Shown here one piece after another: positions 14,888 to 30,100 of a DNA stretch of 32,000 nucleotides (position 1 is the first letter of the stretch; each line of letters starts with the position of its first letter). Source of the DNA: Bellilinea caldifistulae (lineage in GTDB: Bacteria; Chloroflexota; Anaerolineae; Anaerolineales; Anaerolineaceae); NCBI RefSeq assembly GCF_001306055.1, contig NZ_LGHJ01000011.1, positions 90,001 through 122,000 on the forward strand. Reading direction: 5' to 3'. The notes under the pieces are model-generated. The model ran no database searches and was not told where the DNA came from. It worked only from the letters and a program-made list of their open reading frames with translations. A program made the translations under genes and the position numbers.

Positions 14888-14931
14888 GATGTCGTGGCGC
14901 GGCTCTATCCTTTCAATTGGGGAGGTGTTTC

Positions 14932-16104
14932 ATGAAAAAGTTCGTCCATTTGCTCGTAATTTTGCTGGCAGTCGCCTGGCTGCTTGGCAACGGCACCCAA
15001 CTTGGGCAAGCGCAGGAAGGCAACCCACCCGCTGAAGAAACCAACGCCGAGGGAGATGTCTCCATTCAATCGGCTGTTCAGGGTTACATTCCTGTCCAGG
15101 GCCGCCTGACCGATGCGGCTGGCAACCCGATCAACGGCGCTCATCAGATTGCCGTGCGCATCTACGAAGTCCCTACAGGAGGCAGCGCCCGTTGCTCAAT
15201 CAGTACGCCGGTCAATTTAGATCATGGCCTCTTCACGGTTTTGGTGCCGTGTTCTTCTTCCGTGTTTATCGGAAACGAGTTGTACGCTGGTATCAGCGTG
15301 GATAGCGACTCCGAAATGACTCCTCGCCTGACAATTTACCCCGTTCCGTATGCCATGAGCCTGAAACCCGGCGCAATCATCACCAACACAACCGAAGGCC
15401 AAAGAGCGCTGGATGTCAAAAGCGATGTGGGCGGCGGTGCCAGCGGGGCTGCCCTGTGGGTGGAAAACCGCAGTACTGCCAACGGCATTGGCGAATGGGT
15501 CAAAGCCCGCGGTTCGGATGCCACGCTGGTAATCGAAAACACCAGCAGCGGCTCGTTGCTGAAAGCATTTGGCGGAGATGGCGGCGAGGATGAATTTCAA
15601 GTTACCAACAACGGCACAATCCAGGATAAAGCCGATTCGTATATCTTTGTGCCGGCCATTGAGGCAAAATCCACATCGGCAGACGATGTGATCAATTACT
15701 ACGGCGACGGCAGCATAACCGTTCAATACACATCAACCGGTATCAAAGGGCTTGTCTTTGGTATTCCTTTGCCGGCGGTGTTATACGGTCAACCGGTCAA
15801 AGTGGAAGAAGTGACCATTTTTTACGATGTTTCGAATGCGGGTAGTTCAATCAGCCGAACACAAGTCTTCAAGCAATTGACCAGCGGCAGAATCGGTGGT
15901 GGGCCGGCGTTCATGTACCTTGTGGACAACCCAACCACCCGCAATAGCACCACCTACACATCCTACTCACTTCCTGTAAACCAGTGGCTCAGCGATGAAA
16001 CCGGTTTTCTTACGGTTGCGTTGACGATTAACTACAACAGCACATCTCATTTTCTTGACTTCGGCGGGGTGCGCGTGCGGTTAGGGCACCATCCATTGTA
16101 CTAG
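14932..16104 (+). CDS. Secreted protein of unknown function, fibre/adhesin-like N-terminal module
   Basis: The ORF is 14917..16104. I place the start at the ATG at 14932, with GGAGG 8 nt upstream. The signal peptide is MKKFVHLLVILLAVAWLL...AQ. The N-terminal motif IPVQGRLTDAAGNPINGAHQIAVRIYEVPTGG...GLFTVLV...TPRLTIYPVPYA recurs in many uncharacterised surface or tail-fibre-like proteins as I remember them. Confidence 0.8.
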   Translation: MKKFVHLLVILLAVAWLLGNGTQLGQAQEGNPPAEETNAEGDVSIQSAVQGYIPVQGRLTDAAGNPINGAHQIAVRIYEVPTGGSARCSISTPVNLDHGLFTVLVPCSSSVFIGNELYAGISVDSDSEMTPRLTIYPVPYAMSLKPGAIITNTTEGQRALDVKSDVGGGASGAALWVENRSTANGIGEWVKARGSDATLVIENTSSGSLLKAFGGDGGEDEFQVTNNGTIQDKADSYIFVPAIEAKSTSADDVINYYGDGSITVQYTSTGIKGLVFGIPLPAVLYGQPVKVEEVTIFYDVSNAGSSISRTQVFKQLTSGRIGGGPAFMYLVDNPTTRNSTTYTSYSLPVNQWLSDETGFLTVALTINYNSTSHFLDFGGVRVRLGHHPLY

Positions 16105-16117
16105 GAAGGAACTCACC

Positions 16118-16396
16118 ATGAAAACACGCTGGTTCTTCCTCACTTTTATCCTGTTATTGCTGCTTTCACTGACCCTACCGGCCAGCGCCATGCAATCCGC
16201 CAGCTACAAAGTGGACTGGCTGGTGCCGATAACCGGCAGCGGCGGTAACGCGGCTTCATCATTTTACAGCGCCGATTTCACCCTCGGCCAAAGCGTAATC
16301 GGCAGCGAGAGCGGGGTAAACACCGCCGACTGCCTGGGTTACTGGTGCGGTTCAGGCGGCGAGTACTCTATCATGCTGCCCTTGATCACCCGCTGA
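16118..16396 (+). CDS. Small secreted protein of unknown function with an internal S-x-x-Y-x-x-D-[WF] repeat and a C-terminal IMLPLITR tail
   Basis: 92-aa ORF starting 13 nt after the previous stop, with AGGAAGGA upstream. The signal peptide is MKTRWFFLTFILLLLLSLTLPASA. Confidence 0.7.
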   Translation: MKTRWFFLTFILLLLLSLTLPASAMQSASYKVDWLVPITGSGGNAASSFYSADFTLGQSVIGSESGVNTADCLGYWCGSGGEYSIMLPLITR

Positions 16397-16430: not shown

Positions 16431-16468
16431 AAAAAAAATAAGCCGGTGGTTGGGGAAAACCACCGGCT
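16431..16468 (-). terminator. Rho-independent terminator of the fusion-enzyme operon
   Basis: Minus strand: an 11-bp stem agccggtggtt / aaccaccggct (loop of 6 nt) is followed by TA + 8 T (plus-strand A-run 16431-16438). It lies 83 nt after the stop at 16552. Confidence 0.65.
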
Positions 16469-16551
16469 CTGCAGGGGTATTCATTGATGGGATTTTGTTT
16501 GGCTGGTTTGATGCTGCTGTTTCGTCCCCCTGCCCAATTGGTTTGACCGCC

Positions 16552-19500
16552 TCAGGCTAACATGCTGCCCATCTCTCGCAAGTTCTTCACCACCTCCTCC
16601 GGTAGCACGGCAGGCTGCACACCCATCAAGCGGCAGGTGATCAGTTTATGGGCGGTGGTTTCGATCACCTCGGTCATATCCGCTGCGCGGCGCAGGCTGC
16701 TGCCCGCCACCACCAGTCCGTGATTCTGCATCAGCACGGCAATGCCGCGCGGCCCCAGCGCTTTTGCCACCGCCTCGCCCAGTTCATCCGTGCCGGGCAT
16801 GATAAACGGTACCACCGGTATCTCGCCAATGAAAGCCGCCTCGGTCGAAAGCGGCAAGAACGGCGTACCGGTCAGCGCCAGCAGGGTGGCGTACGGCGCA
16901 TGGGTGTGAACCACCGCCTGTACCTCCGGCCGGGCGCGGTAAATGGCGCAATGCACCCGCCGCTCGCTGGAAGCGCTGTAATCCGACTCACCCAGCGGGT
17001 TGCCTTGCAGGTCAATCCGTACCATCATTTCCGGACGTAAATCCCCTTTGAAGATGGCGCTGGGGGTGATCCACACCTCGTCCGGTTTGCCCTCCACCCG
17101 CGCGCTGATGTTGCCGCCGGTGGCGGTGATCCAGCCCCGCTCGTACAATTCGCGCATGATTTCGAGGATCTCATCGCGCACATCCCCCGCTTTGCGGATG
17201 ACCGCCGCAGCCGAGTAAGTTGAGACCGCCGCTTGAGCCGCTGCTGCGGACCCGCCCGCCGAGGCCGGCTGGGCGGGCGGCGCGTTCAACACACTCAGGT
17301 CGCCGGGATCGCCTACCGCCTGACGGGCGCGCTGATACGGCGCGCTCAGGTTGATTTTTTGCATGGTCATGGCCTTGGAAGTATCTCCGCTGAAAGAAAT
17401 TTTCCCGGTCATGGCAGCGCGGGTGGGATTTAACCGGCCGGTGAAAATGCCGTCCAGCGTTTCGGCGGTCATTTTCAAACGCACATCCGGCGGATGAGGG
17501 GGATCACCCAAGCCGGCGCGGGCCTCCCCGCCGGCAAAACGCATGTAAAAGGTGATTCCCAGATCTTTGAGGGTGTACTGAAAGGTCACATTTTTATCGC
17601 GGGCAAACGCGCGGATTTCGTCATCCTTTTCGATTTCCTCCAAAAAGCGGCTCAGCAAACGCTGGAATTGTCCGGCCGCGCCGTCGGCTGCTAGAAGTGG
17701 GGTAGATTGACTTTGCGCAGCCGTTGAAGCAGGCTGGCTTTCTTTGCCAATCAGGCGTTTCAGCCCGCCGAGCAGCCCACCACGCTTTTCAGCTGATTGG
17801 CTGGCCGTTTTTTGGGCGGCTTCGATATCGGTAACCCCGGCGGTCGAGGTGTGACGCAGTTTTTCCAACGTCCGGCGGTCGGCGCGCCGCTCCCCCTGCC
17901 AGCGAAAATTGTCCAAAACCTGGGGATTGAGCGCATACCGCGGCCGCTCACCGCTCAACAGCCGTTTCATTTCTTCCAAAATGATCTTTCCTTGATGAAT
18001 GCCGACTTCCTGGGTGTTACCGCCAATGTGCGGCGTGGCAATCACGTTCGGCAGCGCCAGCAGCGGATCATCACTGCCGGGCGGTTCAACCGGAAAGACA
18101 TCCAAACCAGCCCCGGCCAGCCGTCCGGACTGCAAGGCTTGCAGCAGAGCCGCCTGATCCACCAGCGCAGCCCGGGCAGTGTTGATTAAAAATGCGCCGG
18201 GTTTGATTTGCTCAAAAGCGGCCGCATCCAGTAAAGCGCGGGTTTCGTCCGTCACCGCCGCGTGCAGGGTAATGAAGTCGCTGGCGGCCAGCAATTCGCC
18301 CAGTTCCACTTTTTGAGCGCCGTACAGCGCAGCCTGTTCTTCGCTGATGTAGGGGTCATACAACAGCACACACGCCTCAAACGGCAGCAAGCGGCGGATG
18401 ACGCGCTGGCCAATTGCACCGCCGCCGATCACCCCAACGGTTTTTCCCCACAATTCCTTGCCCTGGAAAGCGAAAAAGGCCTGCCCCATCCGTCCCATGT
18501 CACCCGCTTCACCGCCCGGCTGGCGTAAAAAGGCGGCAGCCTCCGGCAGACGGCGCGCCAGCATCAGCATCAAGGCAATCGTCAGGTCGGCCACGGCATC
18601 GGCATTCCGCCCCGGGGTGTTGATCACCGGCACACCGGCCGCCGTACAGGCCTGCAAATCCACGTTGACCGGATTGCCGCGGCAGGCAAAAATCAGGCGC
18701 AGGTCGGGCAGTTTCTCCAAAACTGCCGCATCCACCACGTCCACTTCGGTGACAAATACCGAATAGCCCCGCAGGGCTTCTACCAGATCATCGCCGCTCA
18801 GCAAGCGACCCTCGCGGCGGTAACTTGCGTAGGTTACTTCGCCCAATTCGCTCAGCAGGCGCACCGCCTCATCACCCAAATCGGCGGTAACCAGCATGCG
18901 CGGGCGAAAATCGCGCGGCAGACTGACTGGCGGTGCGGCTCTGTGCTGCATCGCCTGCACTATGCTGCCGGCTGCGGTTTGATCGGCATCTTCGCGCTGG
19001 CGGCGGATGCTGTCCCATTCTCCAAACCATTCGGTGTAAAAACTCACCCGTTCAGCCGGTGGTGAAAAGGTGCGCAAACTTCCGCACAGGCCGCGGGCGG
19101 CTTCGCCGAGGGAAGGATAAGCCCCGGCTGCGCTGGCAGCGCACATCGCCGCTCCAAGCCCGGCAGCCTGTGGCGTCCGGCTGACTTCAACCGGCCTGCC
19201 GCACACCTCCGCCAGCATCTGATTCCACACCTCGCTGCGGGTCAGCCCGCCGCCTGCCCGGATTTGGGAAGCAACCACCCCGGCTGCCCCTTCGGCCTGT
19301 TCGAGATTGAGGCGCATGGAAGCCGCCAGCCCCTCTAAAATTCCGCGTGCCAGACAGGCGCGCCCGGCCTGTCCGGACGGCAGGCTGAAAGTCGAAAAGG
19401 TCAGTGAATCAACCGGCAGGCCCAGCGCAGCCGCGTTGAACAGCTGCACCCCCAGCGTGGAAAAAACCCCACCTGCACCCGGCGGGACGGTGGCGGCTTC

Positions 19501-20481
19501 GCCACACAGCGCAGCCACCGGTTGAGGTGAGTGCGGGTAAAGCACCCCGGCCGCCCATTCGAGGGCGCTCCCGGCCGAACCGGCGTTGCTTTCCACCACA
19601 TATACATCCGGAAGGAGATGCAGCCCGCACCAGGTACGTCCCTCCGCGTGCAGACGCGGCGCTGAGGTAGTCACCATCACCGGGGCAGTGCTTCCGGCGG
19701 CAATCCCGGCCTGTCCGGCAGAGGTGATGCCCGTGCCCAGCAATGCGCTCTGGGTATCGGCGCCACCGGCGGCAACAACGACATCCGGCGGCAAACCTAA
19801 AAATTCAGCCGCGCCGGTGGTCAAGTTTCCCAGCCGCCCCCCCGCCCAGACCACGGACGGGAAGATGTGCTCGGGTAAACCCAGCCCCGTGATTAGATCA
19901 CCCGCCCAGTTGCGCTGGTGTAAATCAAACAGCAGCGATTCGGCAGCCTGCGAAGCTTCGGCTGCCACCACACCGCACAAGCGGTAGGTCAGCCAGTCGC
20001 TCAGCGTCAGGGCGTAACGAGCGCGCTCCAGCAACGCCGGTTGATTTTCTTTAATCCACAGCAAACGCGCCGCCATCAGTACCGGGCTGGGGTAGTGACC
20101 GGTGCGCTGGTAAAGGTCCCGGCCGCGCGCCTCACCCAGAGTCATGCCCTGCTCAACGGCTCGCGCATCGCGGTTGGGCGCGGCAAACAACACCTCACCG
20201 GCTTCGCCGACCAGCACAACGGTGTGGCGCATGCTGACCACCGCAATCCCCCCGATTTCCGCAGGTTGAACGGCGGCACGCCGGATGACCTCGCCGGTCA
20301 ATTCCCCCAGCGTCCGCCAGATGGTTTCGGTATCCAGATCATAAGCCCAGCCACCCGCCGGCGAAAGCGGGTGAGTCCACGAGCGGTAACCGCTGAAAAT
20401 CTGTCCGTCAGCCGGGTTGACCAGCAGGCAGCGCCCGCCGCTGCTGCCAGCATCCCAACCGATAAACCACTGTTTGCTCAT
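16552..20481 (-). CDS. Four-domain fusion protein: FGGY-family sugar kinase / D-isomer-specific 2-hydroxyacid dehydrogenase / SCP2-like domain / class II aldolase-adducin-family domain
   Basis: A single 1,309-aa ORF with GAGGAGG 8 nt before the ATG. Kinase motifs: [42 protein letters not shown]. Dehydrogenase motifs: [40 protein letters not shown]2-like motif: [19 protein letters not shown]. Aldolase motifs: [26 protein letters not shown]. Confidence 0.9.
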
Positions 20482-20501
20482 CGCCTGAACCTCCTCAATG
20501 A

Positions 20502-21473
20502 TTAAACTTCTTCAGCATCGCACAACCAGTGTGCAGTAGCCGTATCAGTGACCAGCACATCCACCAGCCCGCTGGACAGAGCCGCCTTTACCGCCGGTCG
20601 TTTTGGCTGACCGCCCGCCGCAAGCATTTTCAGGGGAATGCGCTGCAGATCGGATAATGAAATGCCGAGCAGCCGCTGGTGAATGCCGGCCGGCACCAAT
20701 TGACCCCGCCGGTCAAAGAAATACCCCAGCACATCCCCCACCGCCTGATAGACGCGCAGTTCGTTCAGGTCCTCCTCACCGAGCAACCCCACCTGATATA
20801 AAAGCGCAGATTGATCCACCGTGCCGACACTGAAAATAGCCACGTTCGCCTGACGGGCAACATCCAGACTGCGCTGGATAAGCGGGTCGGCCAGCAGATG
20901 ATCACGGGTAGCCGGTTCACTGACGAAAGTGGGCAGTGGGAGGTAGTATGCTTCTCCGCCAGTGAGCACTGCCAGCCGCGTCAGCACATCAAAGTTGTGG
21001 GTAACTTCCACCGGACGAAAATACAGCCCGCCCATCAGGGTAACAAAACGACAGGCGAGCGGCTTTTCCAGCACCAGAAAATCGGGAATGTAGGAAATGG
21101 TACGGCTGACCCCAATCCCTACCGTCCAGCCTTCCTGCAACCGCTGAGCCAGCACCATGGCTGCCATTTGGGCTAACGACTGAGCCAGTTCTTCGCCGGT
21201 TTGATCCATTGCCGGAACCAGCCAGGCGTCCTGCAGGGGATAACGCTGCAAGAGGGCTTCCACCAGCGGTAGATCGGTGGAAATCGGTCGGATGCGGATT
21301 TCGACGATCCCACTTTGTCGGGCTTCCTTGAGGAGCCGGTTGACGGTGATGCGCGAGAGACCCAGCCGCGCACCAATCTCCGCCTGAGTCAGGTCTCGTT
21401 CGTAATACAGCCAGGCCACCCGCGCCAGCAGCTGCTCACGGGTGGAGATGTCTTCCAGCGTTGAATCATGCAT
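20502..21473 (-). CDS. SorC-family (LsrR/DeoR-Bsu/CggR-type) sugar-phosphate-binding transcriptional regulator
   Basis: The ORF is 20502..21509. The N-terminal HTH reads [32 protein letters not shown]. The C-terminal effector domain contains [25 protein letters not shown] and LVTD. I prefer the ATG at 21473 (MHDSTLED) because AAGGG lies upstream. The gap to the fusion gene is 20 nt. Confidence 0.85.
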
Positions 21474-21675
21474 GTTACATTTGAACCCTTTCTGAACAAA
21501 TGTTAGCAAATTTTGAAGAAAGATGCAAGTTGTTTTCCAAACTCACCCACCATTTTCAATTCTACTGGTGCAATTCGCCGGTGGATTTTGGCTTGTCATC
21601 TCCCCTACTTTGCTCCACAATTAAGTCATTCCGCCTGGGGCGTCTTCCCACTCTATTCCATCGAGGAAACTCCTT

Positions 21676-22806
21676 TTGAACGCTCTTTTTTTAGTGGTCG
21701 TCTTCCTTTACTGGTCGGCGTTGTACCTGTATGTGCCCACCCTGCCGCTCTATCTGCAAACCAAAACGAGCGATCTGGCGCTGATCGGCACGGCGCTTTC
21801 GATGTACGGGTTGTGGCAGTTGATCGTGCGCCTGCCGCTCGGCATTCTGGCGGACTGGGCCGGACGCCGCAAGCCGTTTGCCATCTTCTGGCTGTTGCTG
21901 GTGGCTGCCGGTGCGCTGACCCTCGGCCATGCCCCCACCATCGAGATCGCCATCCTTGGGCGGGCGCTGGTCGGTGTTTCAGCCGGCACTTGGGTGCCGC
22001 TGGTCGTGCTGTTTTCCAACCGCTTTTCAGCGGCAGAAGTGGTGCGCGCCACGGGTATTCTGGCAATGACCGCAACCACCGGGCGGATCGTTGCCACTGC
22101 CATCAACGGCTGGTTGAATCAACTGGGCGGTTACCCACTGGCATTCAACCTGGCGGCAGCCTCTGCACTGTTAGGTGCCGCTCTTTTGCTCTTTTTACCG
22201 GAAGCGCCCACGCCACCCCGCAAACCCTCCCTGAATGGTCTGAAGCGGTTGATCAGCCGGCGGGAGGTGATGCTGCCTTCCCTCCTCCAGGTGCTGACCC
22301 ACACCGCCGACTTCGCCGCCACCTTCACCTTCATCCCCATTTTGGCGCGTCAGAAGGGTGCTTCGGATGTGGTCATCAGCATGCTGCTCAGCCTCAATCT
22401 GTTGATTGGCCTGGCGGGCAACAGTCTGGCAGCGGTTCTGGCCCAGCGTTTTGGTCAGCGGCGCATGGTCATGCTCAGTTTTGCTCTGCTGGGCGGCGGC
22501 ATTCTTGGCGCAGCCTGGGCGCCAACCCTCGCATGGGTGTTCGTCTTCCAGTTCTGGGTCGGTCTGGGATTTGGAATTGGCTATCCGCTGTTGATGGGGT
22601 TGAGCATTAACCGTGTGGATGCGGCCGAACGCACCACCGCCATGGGACTGCATCAGTCGGTTTATTCGCTGGGCATGTTCCTCGGCCCGTGGCTGAGTGG
22701 GGTGCTGGCGGCTGCGCTGAACATTCCGCTGATGTTCGTGATCATCGGTTTGCTGATTGTGCTGATGGGCATTGGCGGCGCGGCAATCCTCGACGGTCAA
22801 GGGTGA
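21676..22806 (+). CDS. MFS transporter
   Basis: 376-aa ORF (TTG start) with about 12 TM segments. MFS motif A is present as GILADWAGRRKP. It is transcribed divergently from the regulator. Confidence 0.85.
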   Translation: MNALFLVVVFLYWSALYLYVPTLPLYLQTKTSDLALIGTALSMYGLWQLIVRLPLGILADWAGRRKPFAIFWLLLVAAGALTLGHAPTIEIAILGRALVGVSAGTWVPLVVLFSNRFSAAEVVRATGILAMTATTGRIVATAINGWLNQLGGYPLAFNLAAASALLGAALLLFLPEAPTPPRKPSLNGLKRLISRREVMLPSLLQVLTHTADFAATFTFIPILARQKGASDVVISMLLSLNLLIGLAGNSLAAVLAQRFGQRRMVMLSFALLGGGILGAAWAPTLAWVFVFQFWVGLGFGIGYPLLMGLSINRVDAAERTTAMGLHQSVYSLGMFLGPWLSGVLAAALNIPLMFVIIGLLIVLMGIGGAAILDGQG

Positions 22807-22989: not shown

Positions 22990-24690
22990 TTAGCCCAGCC
23001 GGGTGGAGTAAAAACGACCCGGAGTGAAGAACGGCCCACGCGGAGCGGCGCTGCCACCGCTATAACCGCCGATCAGGTCGAGGAACGCTTCCACCACCTC
23101 CGCCTGAAAATGGCGGTTGGATTGATACCGCAGGTAATCCACTACCTGATGCGGCTGCCACGCCGAGCGGTAGGGGCGGTTGGAACTGAGCGCATCCCAC
23201 ACATCCACCACCGCAAAGATGCGCGCCCCCAGCGGAATTTCCTCACCCCGCAGCCGGCGCGGATAACCGCTGCCATCCCACTTTTCGTGATGGCAGTAGG
23301 GAATATCCAGCAGGTCGTAGAAGTGGGGAATCGGGCTGAGCAGTTCGTAAGCGTATAACGGATGACGGCGCATCACTTTCCACTCGCTCTCGTCCAGCGG
23401 GCCGGGTTTGAGCAAAATGGCGTCCGGAATGCCAATCTTTCCAATATCGTGCAGCTGAGCGCCGCGGCGCAGTTTCACCAGTTCGGCATGGTTCAACCCC
23501 ATGCGTTTGCCCATTTCCACGGTCAGATCCACCACCCGGTTGGAGTGTCGTTCGGTGGTGAAATCGCGCAATTCCAGCGCGCGCGTCCAGCCGTCAATGG
23601 TGGCTTCGTAGGTCTGATTCAAATCCTGGTTGGACTGTTCCAGTGAGCGGGTCAACTGCGCGTTCTGAATGGCAACGGCAGCCGTGTTCGCCACCAGACT
23701 GAGCAGGGCTGTGTCGGTCGCCATGCGGAAGCGCGCCGGACGGTAACTGTGAGCCTGCACCAGCCCAATTACCTGCCCGCGAGTCAACATGGGCACATAC
23801 ACCCCCGAACGCACCGCCCGGCCAGGGCGTACAAAACCAAGCCGGGCCGTGCCGGGCGGGGCCTGAGCCAGCAGGTCATCTATGACCAGCGGTTTAGCGC
23901 TCTGAATGACCTTAAACTGATGCGAATCGGGATGAGTGAGCCGACTCAGGCGCGGCACGCGGTTCAAATCCACCGGCTCGCCCTCATGTTCCCCATAGGC
24001 GCAAATCAGTTCCTGGGTTTCCCCTTCGTAGAGGGAGATATACACCGTACACACGTCCGGGAGCAATTGAACCACTGCTGCACTCAACCGGCGGTAAATT
24101 TCGGTTAAGTCGTCCAGCTGTGCCAGCGCCCGTCCCACCTCACCGACCGCCGCCAGTTTACTTTCGTTCAAACCCCAAAGCAGACGGGGGTCTTCGCGCT
24201 GCTCACCGGTGAGGGTGATCAACAAGGCAGCCCGTCCGTTGAAGAGAATCGCCTCGATATTGGCATAACTGCGGATCAACCTGCCCTGCTGGTTAAAAAT
24301 GAATAATTCCAACCCATGCAGGGAACGCTCCCCACCGAGGCGGGCGAGGATTTTCTTCAAATTATTCTCGCCTAGCCCCGCTGGTAGGCTGTTTTCGGAT
24401 TGATGAATCAACAGACTGCGGGGAATGCCGATCAGATCACAATACCACGGGTTGGCTTCCAGATAGGTGAAGTCGCGTCTGTCCAGAATGCACACGGCTG
24501 CCGGTACACTTTCGATCAACCGCAGCAATGCCTGACGGGTATGATGCAGCGCCTGCTCATAATAAGAAGCGGCAGATGTGCCTGTCTTGCGGCGGAAATA
24601 AGGGGGACGTTTCATAAAGCCGGGTCTGTTTCCCTTTCTCGTGGGGTGAATTTGTCCACGCAAAATGTAAAAAGCGCATAAAAAAGCCAA
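22990..24690 (-). CDS. PAS-GAF-HD-GYP protein (c-di-GMP phosphodiesterase type)
   Basis: 566-aa ORF. The HD-GYP signatures are HDIGKIGIP and HHEKWDGSGYPRRL. PAS-like (LIESVPAAVCILD) and GAF-like regions lie upstream. The start codon is uncertain (24690 or the ATG at about 24614). Confidence 0.85.
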   Translation of the reverse strand: MAFLCAFYILRGQIHPTRKGNRPGFMKRPPYFRRKTGTSAASYYEQALHHTRQALLRLIESVPAAVCILDRRDFTYLEANPWYCDLIGIPRSLLIHQSENSLPAGLGENNLKKILARLGGERSLHGLELFIFNQQGRLIRSYANIEAILFNGRAALLITLTGEQREDPRLLWGLNESKLAAVGEVGRALAQLDDLTEIYRRLSAAVVQLLPDVCTVYISLYEGETQELICAYGEHEGEPVDLNRVPRLSRLTHPDSHQFKVIQSAKPLVIDDLLAQAPPGTARLGFVRPGRAVRSGVYVPMLTRGQVIGLVQAHSYRPARFRMATDTALLSLVANTAAVAIQNAQLTRSLEQSNQDLNQTYEATIDGWTRALELRDFTTERHSNRVVDLTVEMGKRMGLNHAELVKLRRGAQLHDIGKIGIPDAILLKPGPLDESEWKVMRRHPLYAYELLSPIPHFYDLLDIPYCHHEKWDGSGYPRRLRGEEIPLGARIFAVVDVWDALSSNRPYRSAWQPHQVVDYLRYQSNRHFQAEVVEAFLDLIGGYSGGSAAPRGPFFTPGRFYSTRLG

Positions 24691-24852
24691 TAATGACCTT
24701 GAAAATCGGTTTGGTTTGAGTAAAATAATGGGAAATATCCATTCCCCAAACGTATGGATGCTCGCATTAGTGACTTATCATGAGGGGGTGCAAGGTCAAT
24801 GCCAGCATTGCCAGCCCAAAATAACCACCTGCTATTGAACTGCTAAGCCGGG

Positions 24853-27129
24853 GTGGAGATGATGAACACATCCAACCATCCCGATTTTCTGCAACAAAGC
24901 CCGCAGGCAGCCTTGATCGTCCGCACGGACGGCGAAATCGTGTCCGCCAACCTGCTCGCCCTCCATTTGTTGCGTTATACCGCCGATCAACTTTCGGCTC
25001 TCCCGCTTTGGCATCTCATTCCACCCGAATACCACTCCCTATTTCAGCAAACCGATCGGGAACTGGCTGCTCATTCGGGGACGGAATACGAGCTGTTCGC
25101 GCTGGATCGTGAGCAACAGCGAATACCGGTTGCCGTACGAATTTCGCCCCTGCAAGATGACCTGCTGGGCGTCGAGTTACGCGACTTGCGTCCGGTCAAA
25201 GAAGCCCGCGGTGCTCACCGCCGCCAGACTGCCGTTCTGCGTGCCGTTGCAAATGCCAGTTACCAGTTATTCCGCTCCGCTCAACCGGAAGAAGAAATCC
25301 CGTTGGTGCTGGCGCAATTGGGAAACGCCGCCGATGTCAGCCGGGTCTACATCTTTGAAAATCACTGGGAAAACGGCCAGCGGCTGTTGACCAGCCAGCG
25401 CTATGAGTGGTGCGCTGCCGGCATCCAGCCTCAAATTGACGACCCGACTTTACAAAATTTCGACTACCTGGCTGTCGGATTTGATCACTTTTTAGCCACC
25501 TTGCAGCGCGGCGAGGTCGTATCCGGGCGGGTGCGCGATTTTCCCCCCGCCGAACAGACGGAGTTCAGCCGGCAGGGCATTCTTTCCATTCTGATTATCC
25601 CCATTTTTGTTCAACAGCAGTTGTGGGGGTTCATCGGCTTTGACGAGTGCCGCAGCGAACGCACCTGGCAGCCGTATGAAGTGGACACCCTGCGGACGGC
25701 CGCCAATCTGTTTGGGGCTTTCTTTGAGCGGCGCAAAGCCGAAACCGCCCTGCGCGCCAGCGAAGAACTTTACCGTATGCTGGTCGAAAATCAAGGTTTG
25801 GGAGTTGCGCTGGTGGATGAGGGGGAGAACTTCCTTTACGTTAACCTGGAAACCGAAAAACTGTTTGGGGTTGAGCCCGGCAGTTTAACCGGCCGCAACC
25901 TGAGCGAATTTCTCTCCGCCGATCAAATGCAGGTGGTGCTGGAACAAACCGCCCTGCGCCGCAAGGGCTTCCGCAGCCATTATGAAATCGAGATTGTCCT
26001 TCCCAATCAGCAACGGCGCATCCTCTCCGTCCATGCCACGCCCCATTTTGACGAGAGGGGCCGGTTCATCGGTGCGTTCGGCGTTTTTACCGACATCACC
26101 GATCAGAAACGCATGGAGCAGCGTATCCGCAACCTGTTGATGATCGAACAGTCTCACCGGCGCGAATCGGAAGCCCTGCGGGAAGCCATCAGCGCCTTGA
26201 TTCACGATTTGAACTCGAAACAGGCCGCCAAACAGGTGCTGACCGGTCTGGCGCGCATTCTTCCCTACGACCGCTGTGCGCTGTACCTGCAGCAGCGGGA
26301 TCGGTTTTATCTGGCAGGCAAAATCGGTTACCCACCCGGCGCTCCGCCGCCTTCCCTGACCGCCGTTCACCCCCTGGTGCAGGAAATCCAATCTGCCGTG
26401 CGGTTTGTCAATCACATCCAGGATGAGCGCCAACTGGAATGGCTGGGAGAAACCGGCAAGGGAATTGCCTGGATGAGCATCCCGCTTCGCTGGAACAACC
26501 GCCCCATCGGACTGATTTGGGCCATTCGTTCGGCTCCTTCCACCTTCAAGAATAATGAGGTTGCCCTCGCGGAGACCTTTGCCGGGCCGGCAGCCCTTTC
26601 CATTCAGAACAGCCGTCTGTACAGCCAGACCCAGCGGCTGGCTACGCTTGACCCGCTGACCGGTCTGCTCAACCGCCGTTCCATCTTCGAGGCCGGCGAG
26701 AGGGAACTGCTGCGCGCCCACCGTTATGCCGAACCGTTCAGCCTGCTGGTGATCGATCTGGATCATTTCAAAGAGATTAACGACACCTATGGACATCTGA
26801 TTGGAGATGACCTGATCAAGAAGGTGGCCCGGCGGATGAAACACGCCCTGCGTTCCAGCGATCTGATCGGCAGGCCCGGCGGGGATGAGTTCATCGTTTT
26901 GTTAATCAAAACCACGCCTGCCGAAGCAGTCATGGTTGCCGGTCGGCTGCTCAATGCCCTGCGGGAACGGCCTTTTCGGCTGGAGGGTAATACTCATCAC
27001 ATCACGGCCAGCATCGGCGCAGCCGGTCTGGATGACCCCTCAGCCAGCCTGCAATCGCTGATCCAGCGGGCGGATGCGGCTATGTACACCGCCAAACAAA
27101 ACGGTGGAAATCAGGTGCAGGTGGGATGA
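24853..27129 (+). CDS. PAS-GAF-PAS-GAF-GGDEF diguanylate cyclase
   Basis: 758-aa ORF (GTG start). The GGDEF active site is RPGGDEFIVLL, with an RxxD I-site (RSSD) five residues upstream. DHFKEINDTYGH is also present. Confidence 0.9.
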   Translation: MEMMNTSNHPDFLQQSPQAALIVRTDGEIVSANLLALHLLRYTADQLSALPLWHLIPPEYHSLFQQTDRELAAHSGTEYELFALDREQQRIPVAVRISPLQDDLLGVELRDLRPVKEARGAHRRQTAVLRAVANASYQLFRSAQPEEEIPLVLAQLGNAADVSRVYIFENHWENGQRLLTSQRYEWCAAGIQPQIDDPTLQNFDYLAVGFDHFLATLQRGEVVSGRVRDFPPAEQTEFSRQGILSILIIPIFVQQQLWGFIGFDECRSERTWQPYEVDTLRTAANLFGAFFERRKAETALRASEELYRMLVENQGLGVALVDEGENFLYVNLETEKLFGVEPGSLTGRNLSEFLSADQMQVVLEQTALRRKGFRSHYEIEIVLPNQQRRILSVHATPHFDERGRFIGAFGVFTDITDQKRMEQRIRNLLMIEQSHRRESEALREAISALIHDLNSKQAAKQVLTGLARILPYDRCALYLQQRDRFYLAGKIGYPPGAPPPSLTAVHPLVQEIQSAVRFVNHIQDERQLEWLGETGKGIAWMSIPLRWNNRPIGLIWAIRSAPSTFKNNEVALAETFAGPAALSIQNSRLYSQTQRLATLDPLTGLLNRRSIFEAGERELLRAHRYAEPFSLLVIDLDHFKEINDTYGHLIGDDLIKKVARRMKHALRSSDLIGRPGGDEFIVLLIKTTPAEAVMVAGRLLNALRERPFRLEGNTHHITASIGAAGLDDPSASLQSLIQRADAAMYTAKQNGGNQVQVG

Positions 27130-27142
27130 AAACCAACCGGTT

Positions 27143-30100
27143 TCAGCGGCGGATGACCGGCAAAAACAGCCGGCTACCCTGAATGACCAGCAGCCTTTCG
27201 AGGCTCTGCTCAAAAGACGGACAGGCCTCCGAATGAGCGGTAAGCCGCAGACGGTTTGTCTCTCCCGGCGGTGCGTTCTCCGGCGGAGCAATGGGGAGGT
27301 AAAGCAGGGCGCTTTCCCCCATCTGGATTGGGCCGACATCCGGCGTAACCACCCTCCAGTTGCGCTGATCTACCGCCGAGAGACGAAAGGTATCGGCAGC
27401 ATTGCCAGTGTTGGTGAGGACAATTTGAAGCAGATAATCCTGACCCGCACTCAGGGGAGGAATGTCCTCCGGCACGCTCCATTGCAGACCGCACCGCTGA
27501 ACGGTCAACTCGAGACTGGCTGCCGCCCACACGGAAGAATTTTCCTGGCTCCGAGCCGTCAGATCCAGCCTGTATTTTGATTCCGGTGCAGCCGAGTCCG
27601 GCAACCGGACTTCAACCCGGATCTCCTGAGACTCACCGGCGTTCAGGACAAACGACGGTGGGGACGGATCTGCCGGCAATTCGCCACTGATGCTGATTTC
27701 AACCCGCTCGTTCTGCCCGCCGATGTTGCTGACCTGCCACACAAACGAAGCGGCAGCCCCGGCAGGTAAGATGGCGGACTGCTCCGCCGGGCTGATTGCC
27801 AGCCGGCGCACGGGCGATTCGGCACGGCAGGCAACCGCCTCAAACTCATCCAGCGCCAGGCCCTCAGCGGATTGTTCATCCGCCCCGCTCGCCACCACAA
27901 ACCGCAGGCGGACTTCCTGCTCGCGATACGCGGTCAGGTCAACAGCCAGCGGCGACCAATCCCGCCGATGACACCAGGCCGGGCTACCGCCCAGCGGGTT
28001 GCCAAACGAAACCGCCAGAGTGCCCTCGTAAGGCGGGTTGAGAAGCCCCTCTGATCCAGCCCTGAACCAGGTTTGACCATCATCGGTGGAAATTTCCAGT
28101 AAACCCCCGTCCAGACAGGCCGGCGGTTCGCCAAATTCGTAAGCCATCTCGGCGCGCACCCACACCGCCAGTACGCTCGCATCGTCCGGCAAAGAAAGAA
28201 GGGGAGAAGTCAGGGTTTTTTGCGAAATCTCAGCCGGCGCGGCTGCCCGGGCTACCCCGCCGCGGCCAAAAGCGCCGCTCACCTCCCAGCCGTTTTGCAG
28301 AAGCCAGCCGTCGGTGGGGACGGCATCGAAGGACTGCCTGTACAGCAACTCGCTCTGGCTGCCAAACGGGCACTCACCGGGCGGCGGCAGGGTGGTAAAT
28401 TGTGCGACCGGCGAATAATCACCCGCCCCGCAGCCGTTTTTGGCACGCACCCGCCAGTAATAAGTCTGGCTGGGCTGCAGCTCCCGGCTGAGCGTGAGGG
28501 TTGTCTGGGCAATATCCTCAAAGACCTCCACGATTGGACTGAAATCGGCGTCCAGACCAATCTGCACATCATAACCATCCGCCCCGCTGACCGCTGACCA
28601 GCTCAATTGGGGACGCAGACTGACCCGCATGGCGCCGTTCGCCGGCAGCAGCGGCAGGGGTTTGTCCGAAGGCGCCGCCGGGCGCACCATCAGGGATAAA
28701 GCCGCTGCCTGCTGAAATGCGCTGCTCAGCCCCTGCACGGTGAGAGGAAAGTACCCCGCCGGAAGTTCAGCGGGAATGGTGAGGGTGAGCGCGGCGCTGC
28801 CGGGTGAACCGACCGGGTTGGGTGAAAATGTGCCGCTCACGCCTTGCGGAGGATTGAGCAGCGAGAGGGCCACCATCTGGGTCAGGCTGCTGGCAAGACC
28901 AACCTCCACCGATGGGCTGGAAGCCAGGCCGCCGCAAACCGACAGGGTGTTGGGTTCAAGCGAAAGGGAAAAACGCCGGGGAGCATCCAGCCACAGCCGC
29001 AGGGTTGGGTCGCCCCACAGACTGTACATCTCGTAATACTGTTTGACCAGCGTTTCGCCCGGCAGATAGTACCCGCCAAATGCCAGGAAGGCGGTGCGCA
29101 GGGCTTCTCCCAACGGCGGCGGAGCAGCCGCGTTAGAAAACAATCCATGGAACAGTTCCCTCTCCAGCCGCTCGTCCGCAGTGTGGGTGGTGTCTGCCCC
29201 GGCAGCAATCACCGCCAGAGCGCCGGAGGTGGGGTGCAGCAGCCACGCTTCGGCAAAGGAGGTCTGTTCCTCGTCGAGTTCGGCGGTGCGGCTGGCGAAA
29301 CTGACCAGCAGCGGCAGGGGCGGGCCGGTGAGAGCCGTCACATCCTCCGCCGTAAAATACGGTGACATCCACCCCGGTCTGCTGCCCTGACCAAAGTAGA
29401 CGGCCAGCCCGCGGCCCTCGTTCAGGGCAGCAGCAAGGTCGGTTTTTGCGGCGGCGTATGCATGGACGTACAACCGGTCACCGCCCGGCTGCGGGTTGTT
29501 CGGAAACCGCCCATCAAACCCAGCCGGTTGGGTGTATTGCTCAATCATCTGGTTGTGGATGCTTTCGTTGGCTTCGTCGCCGGCAACGAAAGCAACCCGC
29601 CCCAGCCATGCCTGACTGCCGTCCAGCGCCCGGTAGTCGGCCCATTTCGCCAGCACGGCTTGCAGTTCGGCAGTCGAATGCACCGGCAGACGGGCATAAG
29701 CCAGGTTGGGGGTGTAGTCCCACGCACCGTCCAGCGTGGCGTAGTAGAGGTCGGTGGAGGTGGATAGACCGTTGCGGCTCGGCCAGGCCGGCAGCATGCC
29801 CACATCCCCCACCAGCAGTAAAAACTGCGGCGAATAGAAAAGAATTACGGCACGGATTTGCGCGGCCGAAGACCCGATTTGAGAGAGGGTCTTAAAAATG
29901 ACATCGTATCCCTCAGCCTGTTTTGCGGCAATGTAACCCGCCAGCGCCGGCGCAAACTCATCCGGCGCAATGATCAGGTAACGCGACGGAGCAGACTGGG
30001 CTTCCGTCATGTTGCTGGCGCTCGCCAAAACCCCCTGCGGTTGAGCGGCGAATGCCGCTGCGCGCAGGGGGTTGCTTCGTTCCATCAGGGGAAGGACGGC

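Follow-up and report, generated by a model that had tools for sequence, protein, structure and literature searches.

A single gene in the window, the whole 32,000-nucleotide stretch of Bellilinea caldifistulae DNA analysed here, encodes a 1309-residue fusion of an FGGY kinase, a D-2-hydroxyacid dehydrogenase, an SCP2 (sterol-carrier-type) domain and a class II aldolase. We tentatively propose that this protein phosphorylates, oxidises and then cleaves its substrate, preferably a polyol-headed amphiphile, to yield DHAP and an aldehyde. Proteins of this kind are spread over hundreds of bacterial species: the fusion architecture is present in ~80 species genomes from at least 8 phyla, no fewer than 84 protein clusters (90% identity) share it, and our literature search found no paper describing the kinase-dehydrogenase-SCP2-aldolase arrangement. 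It is the fusion, and not the three-gene locus in which it sits here, that is the conserved unit.

Layout of the locus and its modules

The fusion gene follows a regulator gene on the minus strand, with a transporter gene diverging from the shared control region (positions are those of the window):

16440-16469, minus strand: intrinsic terminator at the end of the probable regulator-fusion transcript; stem of 12 bp (7 G-C pairs), loop of 6 nt, T8
16552-20481, minus strand: four-module fusion gene, 1309 aa (FGGY kinase, D-2-hydroxyacid dehydrogenase, SCP2, class II aldolase)
16555-17184, minus strand: class II (metal-dependent) aldolase module, residues 1100-1309, with phosphate pocket and metal ligands
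17302-17682, minus strand: SCP2 module, residues 934-1060, with low-complexity linkers on either side
17902-18906, minus strand: NAD-dependent D-2-hydroxyacid dehydrogenase module, residues 526-860, nearest to D-3-phosphoglycerate dehydrogenases (PGDH)
18952-20481, minus strand: kinase module, residues 1-510, LsrK branch of the FGGY family; D10 and D242 invariant in the family alignment
20482-20501, minus strand: intercistronic spacer of 20 nt, with Shine-Dalgarno GAGGAGG at 20496-20490
20502-21473, minus strand: SorC-family transcriptional regulator, 323 aa, with N-terminal HTH and 'Sugar-bind' (sugar-phosphate-binding) domain
21474-21528, minus strand: candidate promoter and operator for the regulator and fusion genes, -35 TTGCAT at 21528-21523, -10 TAACAT at 21505-21500
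21593-21621, plus strand: candidate sigma-70-like promoter of the MFS gene, TTGTCA, 17-nt spacer, CACAAT
21676-22806, plus strand: divergent MFS transporter, 376 aa, TTG start with GAGGAA upstream

This anatomy of SorC regulator and fusion, divergent MFS gene and terminator had been described in the earlier note, and is present with small corrections to its coordinates: a strong terminator does close the unit, at 16469-16440 on the minus strand rather than at 16431-16468. The regulator ends with TAA at 20504-20502 and the fusion opens with ATG at 20481, so that the 20-nt spacing and the intervening GAGGAGG reported previously are as described. A scan of this spacer gave neither terminator nor promoter, and the equivalent gap is also short (~20-28 nt) in three related loci (L001, L004 and L007). 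Whilst the mechanical open reading frame of the regulator opens at TTG 21509, the start conserved across relatives is ATG 21473, which leaves the control region at 21474-21675 (202 nt), as had been named before. Here, 17 nt separate the -35 and -10 hexamers of the candidate regulator promoter, and an imperfect palindrome on the plus strand (GAACAAATGTTA at 21494-21505, GTTACATTTGAAC at 21474-21486) overlaps the -10 and the leader. This element is kept in the window, L001, L007 and L004, amidst DNA that has diverged; L001 also retains both hexamers of the candidate MFS promoter. Considering the short gap with its ribosome-binding site, the lack of a terminator between the genes, and the candidate promoter and palindrome conserved ahead of the regulator gene, it is probable that regulator and fusion share one transcript, with the fusion second in an operon of two genes. 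The MFS protein is of the MFS_1 type and matches drug/H+ antiporter-like proteins; the sugar-porter model did not fit.

All four Pfam domains of the fusion score far above their gathering thresholds (FGGY_N/C at residues 7-452, 2-Hacid_dh at 530-852, SCP2 at 954-1043, Aldolase_II at 1104-1278), the SCP2 match reaching 54 bits against a cutoff of 21, with AlphaFold pLDDT of 85-92. The dehydrogenase module has kept D709 as well as two invariant features, its GxGxxG motif and its R770/E799/H818 triad, and carries a clade-specific insertion of 14 residues, whilst the phosphate pocket (GGN.S and SSE) and metal ligands (E1173, H1192, H1194, H1254) of the aldolase module are invariant across the family. 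Judging by these invariant residues, all three catalytic modules look competent.

Conservation, fission and genomic neighbours

The earlier note had regarded the locus as self-contained. However, the regulator adjoins the fusion in only 5 of 83 related loci, all of them in Anaerolineae (six loci counting the window), and the MFS gene in 1 of 83, the 88%-identical Bellilinea genome L001 (two counting the window); the three genes are thus not conserved as a unit in relatives, an outcome which the earlier note itself had held to count against its reading. What does persist is the set of modules. In L085, a kinase-dehydrogenase protein is followed by an SCP2-SCP2-aldolase protein; in L086 and L095 the same kinase-dehydrogenase fusion precedes a separate aldolase, with SCP2 absent altogether; and in L097 the kinase is fused to the aldolase. 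Other proteins are dehydrogenase-SCP2-SCP2-aldolase (P0123) or two-domain SCP2-aldolase (P0153 and P0172). A fully unfused operon (L096) reads MFS-aldolase-GntR-SCP2-dehydrogenase-AFOR-FGGY, its genes being 35-52% identical to the matching modules. Since these split and unfused arrangements still keep the modules in one another's company, they show that the four work together. The bond between SCP2 and aldolase is particularly close: this SCP2 subtype, a rare one with 307 clusters among 1.84 billion representatives, is essentially confined to this aldolase, and is nearly always fused to it or encoded beside it, in zero, one or two copies or as a separate gene.

Aldehyde-oxidising enzymes are the commonest functional theme amongst the neighbours. 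In 12 loci (L008, L016, L019, L020, L028, L096, L014, L017, L059, L097, L025 and L038), the unit contains or adjoins a gene for aldehyde:ferredoxin oxidoreductase (AFOR) or aldehyde dehydrogenase (ALDH), which supports an aldehyde product. A second theme is lipid-related. The hopanoid-associated HpnA, above its NCBI curated cutoff, is found near the fusion in 7 species of 3 phyla, in rearranged orders that also include a PigE-like aminotransferase and an M28 peptidase. HpnA is joined by HpnH in one case, L029, where 2.4 kb separate HpnH from the fusion (542 bits, cutoff 225). This hopanoid-gene linkage belongs to members ~50% identical to the window protein, and not to the window itself. Five Myxococcota loci hold a P450 and a TetR regulator, with the P450 directly upstream of the fusion, within 45 nt, and in L033 overlapping its start codon. 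Elsewhere we find steroid-24-oyl-CoA-synthetase-like (664 bits) and FadD11-like (808 bits) ligases, lipid-transfer thiolases, a LuxC-type acyl-CoA reductase and a polyprenyl synthase. A third group of neighbours is of sugar type: four loci (L009, L064, L079 and L085) contain a classical sugar-acid cluster with KDG kinase, KDPG aldolase, GFO/IDH oxidoreductases and BKACE, and a GPH-family symporter, alpha-mannosidase and ROK protein appear in some. Sugar isomerases, sugar ABC systems and PTS are not among the recurrent neighbours. As 135 immediate neighbours represent 130 different Pfam families, each of these contextual signals rests on a minority of loci.

Proposed reaction and the nature of the substrate

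From the domain architecture, the conservation of catalytic residues, the pattern of fusion and fission and the neighbourhood statistics, we infer both an order of steps and a class of substrate. The substrate would end in a vicinal polyol, and the LsrK-like kinase, as its family suggests, would phosphorylate the terminal CH2OH. The PGDH-like, NAD+-dependent module would then turn the adjacent CHOH into a ketone, giving a head group of the ketose-1-phosphate type; PGDH performs the same oxidation next to CH2-O-phosphate. Lastly, given the conserved metal and phosphate ligands and a structure like that of FucA and DrdA, the aldolase module would cut the C3-C4 bond, sending three carbons of the polyol head into glycolysis as DHAP and releasing the remainder as an aldehyde, to be oxidised in many relatives by the adjacent AFOR or ALDH. 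The SCP2 module most likely holds a hydrophobic tail, and it is this that makes an amphiphile with a polyol head the preferred substrate. Indeed, the rare SCP2 subtype, together with HpnA, HpnH, the P450s, the steroid and fatty acyl-CoA ligases and the lipid-transfer thiolases, suggests that the substrate is probably hydrophobic-tailed, and a bacteriohopanepolyol-type side chain is the best candidate, with other polyol lipids possible. The SorC-family repressor presumably sits on the conserved palindrome at the promoter of its own gene until a phosphorylated intermediate or product releases it, and the divergent MFS protein would serve as membrane transporter for the substrate or for a product.

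Several observations pull against a lipid. The window's own partners, a SorC regulator and a generic MFS protein, do not point to one, and the sugar-acid clusters and the SCP2-less split systems (L086 and L095) sit awkwardly with the model. D-2-hydroxyacid dehydrogenases normally require a carboxylate beside the oxidised carbon. To our knowledge, moreover, characterised FGGY kinases all act on small soluble sugars or polyols. Could the same chemistry, ending in DHAP and an aldehyde, serve such a compound instead? A tetritol, pentitol or 5- or 6-deoxy-alditol would give formaldehyde, glycolaldehyde, acetaldehyde or lactaldehyde, with SCP2 as a structural or scaffolding part. The sugar-phosphate sensing of the SorC family, the sugar-type genes listed above and the split versions without SCP2 all agree with this, as does the aldolase's second-best solved relative, the 5-deoxyribulose-1-phosphate aldolase DrdA; small aldehydes, too, are oxidised by AFOR and ALDH. 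We judge a small soluble substrate somewhat less likely than a polyol lipid, as it leaves unexplained an SCP2 subtype that stays fused to the aldolase, occurs twice over in some lineages and has its own gene in the unfused operon, and as the recurrent partners are P450, TetR, HpnA, HpnH and steroid or fatty acyl-CoA ligases instead of the isomerases and uptake systems of sugars.

Comparison with known systems

The aldolase module raises the question of whether the last step is cleavage or decarboxylation. By sequence, its best PDB match is Klebsiella YgbL (6voq, 95.6 bits), it groups with the E. coli decarboxylase YgbL/OtnC at 84% bootstrap in a small tree, and it lacks an equivalent of FucA Tyr113, the last two features counting against the polyol-lipid model. 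Perhaps the kinase acts on a sugar acid of the tetronate type (erythronate, threonate or a longer aldonate). Oxidation by the PGDH-like module at the carbon adjoining the phosphomethyl would then give a 3-oxo acid, from which the aldolase-fold module, as an OtnC-like decarboxylase, would yield DHAP and CO2. This would satisfy the dehydrogenase's preference for a carboxylate and suit the sugar-acid contexts of some members. However, the NCBIfam OtnC model gives 114 bits, below its cutoff of 250, and structurally the module is closer to the true DHAP-releasing aldolases FucA and DrdA (Foldseek TM 0.85-0.87) than to YgbL; FucA and the fusion give equally good scores with the separate aldolases of SCP2-less systems. 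A decarboxylation would make no aldehyde, leaving the 12 AFOR/ALDH loci unexplained along with SCP2 and the lipid-type neighbours, and we regard this route as improbable.

Within the FGGY family, the kinase domain falls in the LsrK branch, as the earlier note had supposed: LsrK is its best NCBIfam model (236 bits, with XylB next at 191), its best PDB match is 5ya0 (173 bits, next 114), and a neighbour-joining tree unites it with E. coli LsrK (97% bootstrap) and separates it from XylB, GlpK, LyxK, FucK, RhaB and AraB. The LsrK peptides quoted in support are exact in E. coli LsrK, and the window matches them at 12/27 and 6/9 positions. From this likeness came the proposal that DPD is phosphorylated, that the dehydrogenase acts as a reductase on a keto group of phospho-DPD or its isomer, and that the aldolase-fold module splits a 5-deoxy-pentulose-1-phosphate into DHAP and acetaldehyde, with the SorC regulator in the role of LsrR, itself a SorC-family protein and 31% identical to that regulator. 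In a variant that we considered, the aldolase-fold module would instead epimerise 1-deoxy-L-pentulose-5-phosphate towards DXP. Coherent as this scheme is on paper, and suited as acetaldehyde would be to AFOR and ALDH, it is the least probable reading: LsrB, LsrC, LsrD, LsrF and LsrG homologues, and an LsrACDB-type transporter, are absent from the window (as the earlier note had already seen for LsrF and LsrG) and from all 86 related loci, nothing here supplies the LsrG-type isomerisation on which cleavage depends, just six loci have the regulator next to the fusion, and no place is left for the lipid and terpenoid neighbours or for SCP2, a dedicated aldolase partner which the earlier note left out of account and which points towards a hydrophobic substrate. 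The fusion system is probably not one of quorum-signal (AI-2) processing. The more general idea of a class II aldolase ending the route with DHAP and an aldehyde does fit the aldehyde oxidisers nearby. Sequence scores, too, speak against AI-2: the kinase shares 27% identity with LsrK and falls below half of the LsrK cutoff (528 bits), and the regulator scores 156 bits on the LsrR model (cutoff 486) but 211 bits on that of Bacillus DeoR.

The regulator–fusion locus and its surroundings

By ORF scan, Pfam and alignment, the anatomy proposed in the earlier note – a regulator followed by the fusion, a divergent MFS gene and a terminator closing the unit – was right to within a few bases.

Features of the locus and adjoining genes (window coordinates; fusion domains in residues)
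16552-20481, minus strand: fusion gene, 1309 aa (ORF scan and Pfam)
Fusion residues 7-452: FGGY kinase, N- and C-terminal domains (Pfam)
Fusion residues 530-852: D-2-hydroxyacid dehydrogenase (Pfam)
Fusion residues 954-1043: SCP2 (Pfam)
Fusion residues 1104-1278: class II aldolase (Pfam)
16469-16440: terminator closing the unit, a 12-bp stem then T8
Gap of 20 nt upstream of the fusion: GAGGAGG Shine-Dalgarno sequence
ATG at 21473 to a TAA stop 20 nt upstream of the fusion: SorC-family regulator gene (HTH and PF04198), 323 aa, start placed by alignment with relatives
21528-21523 and 21505-21500: candidate regulator promoter, -35 TTGCAT, 17-nt spacer, -10 TAACAT
21593-21621: promoter-like site before the MFS gene, TTGTCA, 17-nt spacer, CACAAT; conserved in the related locus L001
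21676-22806: MFS_1 transporter gene, 376 aa, diverging from a 202-nt control region
22990-24690, minus strand: GAF and HD_5 (HD-GYP-like) protein
24853-27129, plus strand: PAS-GAF-GGDEF protein
27143-30187: 1014-aa protein, Peptidase_C25 (gingipain-like) followed by fn3 and Ig-like domains

The regulator scores 194.7 bits on PF04198 ("Sugar-bind"; cutoff 27) and matches HTH models over residues 23-72, which places it, as had been supposed, in the same SorC family as LsrR. Given the 20-nt gap with its ribosome-binding site, the lack of a terminator between the genes, and a similarly short gap (20-28 nt) in three of five relatives (loci L001, L004 and L007), we infer that regulator and fusion are co-transcribed; a sequence scan of the junction found no promoter-like or terminator-like site. 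Directly 5' of the regulator ATG, a 55-nt element with diverged flanks is common to four Bellilinea-clade loci (the window, L001, L004 and L007), and over the regulator -10 and short leader lies an imperfect palindrome, TAACATTTGTTC ... GTTCAAATGTAAC (coding strand). The element is plausibly a candidate autoregulated promoter and operator, and the regulator and MFS protein would fit a sensor of a phosphorylated intermediate and a generic transporter.

This arrangement is not, however, the self-contained unit that had been supposed. Across 83 loci, tblastn found the regulator in five and the MFS gene in one, and we reject a conserved regulator-fusion-MFS trio, an outcome that the earlier note itself had named as refuting its reading. 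The five related loci in which the regulator adjoins the fusion (L001, L004, L007, L010 and L074) are all Anaerolineae, and the MFS gene adjoins it in L001 only; in other lineages the fusion is paired with GntR/UTRA, TetR or MarR regulators.

Elsewhere in the window, 22990-27129 holds a divergent pair of c-di-GMP-type signalling genes, and synteny with L001 suggests that the ORF at 30266-31789 encodes a CBM96-domain protein. Two consecutive ORFs at 14917-16396 (395 and 92 aa), each starting with a hydrophobic, signal-peptide-like stretch, converge on the fusion terminator and have no counterpart in the syntenic Bellilinea locus L001; the 395-aa ORF has no Pfam match. An M28 peptidase gene lies at 1242-2501, and we considered whether it is of the M28 type associated with HpnA and the fusion in other Anaerolineae, which tblastn did not bear out, giving no match.

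Four modules on one chain

The first module is an FGGY kinase (PF00370, 134.5 bits; PF02782, 62.4 bits), with D10 and D242 invariant in 18 members of the family. The earlier note had assigned it to the LsrK lineage, quoting E. coli LsrK peptides that proved exact, and the assignment stands: LsrK is the best NCBIfam match (236.5 bits, against 191 for XylB), Salmonella LsrK (5ya0) is the best solved relative (173 bits; the next reaches 114), and 18 diverse fusion kinases form the sister clade of E. coli LsrK with 97% bootstrap. That neighbour-joining tree, in which the clade stands apart from XylB, GlpK, LyxK, FucK, RhaB and AraB, used E. coli references only, with EryA and D-ribulokinase outside the set.

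Membership of the AI-2/Lsr system, a possibility raised in the earlier note, is rejected, since curated cutoffs are failed and the Lsr partners are absent from the window and from 86 related loci. The kinase module is 26.6% identical to E. coli LsrK, and its 236.5 bits are under half the 528 of the LsrK equivalog NF008187; the regulator scores 156 bits on the LsrR model NF011947 (cutoff 486) and fits a Bacillus-type DeoR model better (211 bits), yet still below that cutoff of 420. Searching with every E. coli Lsr protein, tblastn detected homologues of LsrB, C, D, F and G neither in the window nor in those 86 loci; the LsrA matches are generic ABC ATPases. No Ery model, as an erythritol system might have yielded, was among the best 25 NCBIfam matches listed. 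Some databases annotate relatives of the fusion as 'autoinducer 2 kinase' or 'L-ribulose-5-phosphate 4-epimerase', and we caution against the AI-2 kinase label for these proteins.

The second module is a D-isomer-specific 2-hydroxyacid dehydrogenase, with both Pfam domains (PF02826, 187 bits; PF00389, 62 bits), the GxGxxG NAD motif and the Arg-Glu-His triad; across 18 members sharing 45-88% identity with the window fusion, G683, G686, G688, D709, R770, E799 and H818 do not vary. It is closest to D-3-phosphoglycerate dehydrogenases (PGDH; Mycobacterium tuberculosis SerA1, 182 bits), although it scores 229 bits against the 454 required by the PGDH equivalog TIGR01327 and aligns to profile positions 29-314 of 525 only. 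3-Phosphoglycerate is unlikely to be its substrate.

The third module belongs to the SCP2 family (PF02036, 54 bits against a cutoff of 21.3), and its AlphaFold model is predicted with the expected order of helices and strands (pLDDT 85-92); fusion members of about 1480 aa carry two such domains. A word-indexed homology search with SCP2 alone gave no match, whereas an exhaustive HMMER search found 307 representative clusters among 1.84 billion proteins, and nearly all of those examined were partners of a fusion-type aldolase or stand-alone copies. Considering how rare this subtype is, and that it nearly always accompanies a fusion-type aldolase, we regard it as an accessory dedicated to the aldolase step. 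Just two proteins in that search had a clearly different architecture, P0246 (1909 aa), polyketide-synthase-like with a C-terminal SCP2, and P0215 (694 aa), glycosidase-like with two SCP2 repeats.

The last module falls in the class II aldolase/adducin superfamily by its PF00596 match (182 bits), its metal ligands (E1173, H1192, H1194 and H1254) and its phosphate pocket, GGN.S (G1122-G1123-N1124) and SSE (S1171-S1172), all invariant in 18 members. Structure prediction confirms the folds of this module and of SCP2, the ligand tunnel and domain packing lying beyond the method; the aldolase model resembles FucA and DrdA (TM 0.85-0.87) more than YgbL (0.82-0.83) or AraD (0.77). By sequence the module sits between YgbL/OtnC, DrdA and FucA: YgbL/OtnC (6voq, 95.6 bits) and the 5-deoxyribulose-1-phosphate aldolase DrdA (6btd, 86.8 bits) are its two best matches in the PDB, and YgbL is its nearest E. 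coli paralogue (84% bootstrap). Every NCBIfam equivalog cutoff is nevertheless failed, with 98 bits against 264 for FucA, 114 against 250 for OtnC (NF043034, 3-oxo-tetronate 4-phosphate decarboxylase), and 130 against 251 for the AraD subfamily PRK06557; identity to AraD is 27%, and the fusion has SSE where AraD has SSD. No tyrosine aligns with FucA Tyr113, where the fusion reads LSTEAAF. Since the module lies between FucA and OtnC and lacks Tyr113, sequence does not assign aldolase, epimerase, decarboxylase or dehydratase chemistry.

That the four modules form one functional unit is argued by nature's own fission products, which show the same partnership. One locus (L085) encodes an FGGY-dehydrogenase followed by an SCP2-SCP2-aldolase; two (L086 and L095) encode an FGGY-dehydrogenase and a separate aldolase without SCP2, this aldolase being as similar to FucA as to the fusion; and in L097 an aldehyde dehydrogenase precedes an FGGY-aldolase fusion. 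The exhaustive SCP2 search added a dehydrogenase-SCP2-SCP2-aldolase protein and SCP2-aldolase two-domain proteins. A fully unfused operon, MFS-aldolase-GntR-SCP2-dehydrogenase-AFOR-FGGY (AFOR, aldehyde:ferredoxin oxidoreductase), lies on one strand of a Logan SRR9651403 contig (L096:1432-9539), with a stand-alone SCP2 of 126 aa; its products share 39%, 35%, 52% and 35% identity with the matching window modules, each nearer the fusion than any E. coli paralogue, and it would make a good source of individually expressible components.

The fusion is a widespread, unstudied multi-enzyme. The nearest proteins to that of the window are 97% (a metagenome) and 88% identical (Bellilinea sp., Anaerolineae), and the same four-domain arrangement (1265-1488 aa) recurs in at least 84 clusters at 90% identity. 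A scan of one genome per species gave at least 80 loci with full-length matches of 41-80% identity; those listed include 36 Chloroflexota, 27 Myxococcota or 'Deltaproteobacteria', four Spirochaetales, two Mycobacterium (M. innocens and M. persicum), two other Actinomycetota, two Halioglobus and a few others, with single loci in Ca. Uabimicrobium (Planctomycetota), Margulisiibacteriota, Thermodesulfobacteriota and Christensenellales. Across 185,579 species-representative genomes, pattern matching picked out at least 351 stretches that encode a relative, in Chloroflexota, Myxococcota, Spirochaetota, Actinomycetota (including the Mycobacterium kansasii complex), Planctomycetota and others. Full-text literature searches found no paper on the four-module architecture.

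Gene neighbours across lineages

There is no universal neighbour: when 689 neighbouring ORFs were clustered all against all, no family extended beyond nine loci, and a Pfam census spread the 135 immediate neighbours over 130 families. We therefore rejected the idea that one conserved gene beside the fusion would disclose the pathway, the contexts being lineage-specific. Aldehyde oxidisers nonetheless stand beside or within the unit in 12 loci, as AFOR in six (L008, L016, L019, L020, L028 and L096), as an aldehyde dehydrogenase (ALDH) directly upstream in four (L014, L017, L059 and L097), and, in both mycobacteria (L025 and L038), as an ALDH-family protein encoded immediately downstream.

A block of GntR, AFOR, class-III aminotransferase (best model PigE, 428 bits), M28 peptidase and HpnA accompanies the fusion, whole or partial, in five Anaerolineae (L008, L016, L020, L028 and L064), and lies rearranged on its other side in a Thermoleophilia genome (L082); AFOR, GntR/UTRA, the PigE-like aminotransferase, M28 and HpnA recur at L084:3617-9990. 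Such a block could be a pre-processing module that converts an amine or aminoacyl head group to a polyol. An 'HpnA-like' neighbour cluster proved to be mixed, its Mycobacterium and type-B SDRs reaching only 69-155 bits on the HpnA model, and we accordingly counted only those above the NCBI curated cutoff: seven of about 80 species, in three phyla (421-446 bits against 367.65).

In L029, from a 'delta proteobacterium' MAG, 1.3 kb separate the fusion from HpnA and 2.4 kb separate it from HpnH, the adenosylhopane synthase (542 bits against a cutoff of 225). This was the only locus with a tblastn match to HpnH, and the window has neither HpnA nor HpnH. At L029:10001-17472 (CAVWLW010000069.1) the fusion adjoins a conserved gene of unknown function, a true HpnA and HpnH; the same gene adjoins the fusion in L083, and in L029 an MlaC lipid-transport gene follows a few kb away. 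No description of a link between the fusion and hopanoid side-chain genes, as in L029, was found in the papers searched, nor did literature searches find a paper describing a hopanoid catabolic enzyme. By published accounts HpnA has no known function and does not occur in genomes without hpnH; no enzyme has yet been assigned to the step from ribosylhopane to bacteriohopanetetrol, and HpnO, an aminotransferase, works at that same C35 carbon (PMC12583986, PMC5462960).

Other lineages bring further lipid-type neighbours. Five Myxococcota loci have a cytochrome P450 directly upstream, within 45 nt (overlapping the fusion start codon in L033), with a TetR regulator beside it in four of the five, and often a ligase nearest steroid-24-oyl-CoA synthetase (664 bits) and thiolase-like lipid-transfer proteins. 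The nearest relatives of the P450 did not discriminate, macrolide hydroxylases being nearest and the steroid oxidases CYP142 and CYP125 further down. The mycobacterial loci hold a FadD11-like ligase (808 bits) and SDRs near 7-beta-hydroxysteroid and mycolate reductases; a LuxC-type acyl-CoA reductase adjoins the fusion in L082, as does a polyprenyl synthase in L064. In M. innocens and M. persicum (M. kansasii complex; L025:1-14000 and L038), cultured mycobacteria with a full fusion and tractable for genetics, IlvA, FadD11-like ligase and SDR genes lie on one side of the fusion and a 573-aa ALDH-family protein on the other.

Proposed chemistry, possible substrates and known systems

PGDH oxidises the CHOH next to a CH2-O-phosphate. 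The simplest chemistry that would use all three activities, with step order and substrate predicted from the modules, is to phosphorylate, oxidise and cleave: the kinase would phosphorylate the terminal CH2OH of a vicinal polyol end group, the dehydrogenase would oxidise the neighbouring CHOH to a ketose-1-phosphate-type head, and the aldolase would release DHAP and an aldehyde by retro-aldol cleavage. This endpoint is a part of the earlier interpretation that survives.

Which substrate, then, would enter such a pathway? Given the dedicated SCP2 and how common lipid, terpenoid and steroid-type neighbours are, we tentatively consider a molecule with a hydrophobic tail the likeliest class. A small soluble polyol or deoxy-sugar undergoing these same reactions is somewhat less likely, SCP2 and the lipid-type neighbours standing against it. 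In four loci (L009, L064, L079 and L085) GFO/IDH oxidoreductases, BKACE-SDR, KDG kinase and KDPG aldolase lie near the fusion, a context that looks like sugar-acid catabolism and points away from lipids. An acid-sugar route of the OtnC type, to which the match with YgbL would lend itself, is improbable with the module below the OtnC cutoff. AI-2 as substrate, for all the LsrK ancestry of the kinase, is highly improbable in view of the missing Lsr partners.

Within the hydrophobic-tailed class, one specific version is a long shot: that the family is the first enzyme system to cleave the side chain of bacteriohopanepolyol or a closely similar polyol lipid. SCP2 would extract the hopanoid, the kinase would phosphorylate the C35-OH of bacteriohopanetetrol, the dehydrogenase would oxidise C34, and the aldolase would cut C32-C33 to give DHAP and a C32 hopanoid aldehyde, which AFOR or ALDH would oxidise to C32 hopanoic acid. 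Where the Anaerolineae/Thermoleophilia block is present, the M28 aminopeptidase, the PigE/HpnO-like aminotransferase and HpnA would act first, turning aminoacyl-aminotriol and aminotriol hopanoids into the tetrol. This version draws on the context of relatives about 50% identical to the window fusion, the window itself giving no hopanoid pointer. The hopanoic acids and hopanols dominating recent (young) sediments are C32 compounds, and if the hopanoid reading were true it would give them an enzymatic origin and suggest a function for HpnA. More broadly, a polyol-headed lipid substrate would open up the bacterial catabolism of hopanoid-type membrane lipids and explain why hpnA, of unknown function, travels with the fusion. 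As one recombinant protein could reconstitute the complete mini-pathway, the substrate is directly testable.

Several known systems share parts of this design. In the L-fucose and L-rhamnose pathways (FucK/FucA, RhaB/RhaD) and the 5-deoxyribose DHAP shunt (DrdK/DrdI/DrdA), a kinase, of the FGGY or another family, and a metal-dependent class II aldolase likewise act together; the ketose-1-phosphate is split into DHAP and an aldehyde, which a dedicated oxidoreductase handles, and in structure the aldolase module has no closer relatives than FucA and DrdA (TM ~0.86). There, however, an isomerase makes the ketose, whereas in the fusion a PGDH-like dehydrogenase is predicted to do so after phosphorylation; the fusion also has all activities on one chain, an SCP2 module and no FucA Tyr113. 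The four-carbon acid-sugar pathway of OtnK and OtnC similarly reaches DHAP through a kinase and an enzyme of class II aldolase fold, and YgbL is the best PDB sequence match of the fusion module; yet OtnK is of the DUF1537 family and not FGGY, and OtnC, whose cutoff the module fails, releases CO2 rather than an aldehyde. SerA and PdxB share the fold, the Arg-Glu-His triad and the NAD motif of the dehydrogenase and oxidise a CHOH beside CH2-O-phosphate, the reaction predicted here, but the fusion dehydrogenase lacks the ACT and ASB regulatory domains and has a clade-specific 10-residue insertion.

With the Lsr autoinducer-2 system of Enterobacteria the fusion shares a kinase that is sister to LsrK among E. 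coli FGGY paralogues, a SorC-family regulator adjoining the kinase gene in the window, and a (predicted) DHAP endpoint. It differs in that kinase and regulator fall below the Lsr equivalog cutoffs, that dehydrogenase, SCP2 and class II aldolase modules take the place of the missing thiolase LsrF, isomerase LsrG and transporter LsrACDB, and that the regulator linkage is limited to a few Anaerolineae.

SCP2 modules occur in multi-enzymes and carriers such as peroxisomal MFE-2 and SCPx, alkylsulfatases, and UbiJ/UbiT of the ubiquinone metabolon, attached to soluble enzymes that work at the polar end of hydrophobic molecules. In the fusion, too, SCP2 is joined to the last-step enzyme, although to our knowledge none of these combines it with a sugar kinase or class II aldolase. 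Eukaryotic sphingoid-base catabolism, through sphingosine kinase, sphingosine-1-phosphate lyase and fatty aldehyde dehydrogenase, follows the logic proposed for a lipid substrate: the head is phosphorylated, and a C-C bond is cut to give a small phosphorylated unit and a long-chain aldehyde, which is then oxidised. Its enzymes are of unrelated families (a DAG-kinase-like kinase and a PLP-dependent lyase), and its product is phosphoethanolamine rather than DHAP.

Every domain family of the fusion was already known, and reaching DHAP by way of a kinase and a class II aldolase is likewise familiar. The novelty lies in their joining: a single chain of 1300 residues carries a kinase of the LsrK branch, a dehydrogenase resembling PGDH, a dedicated SCP2 and an aldolase resembling FucA, and the link to SCP2 and hopanoid-associated genes is unexpected.
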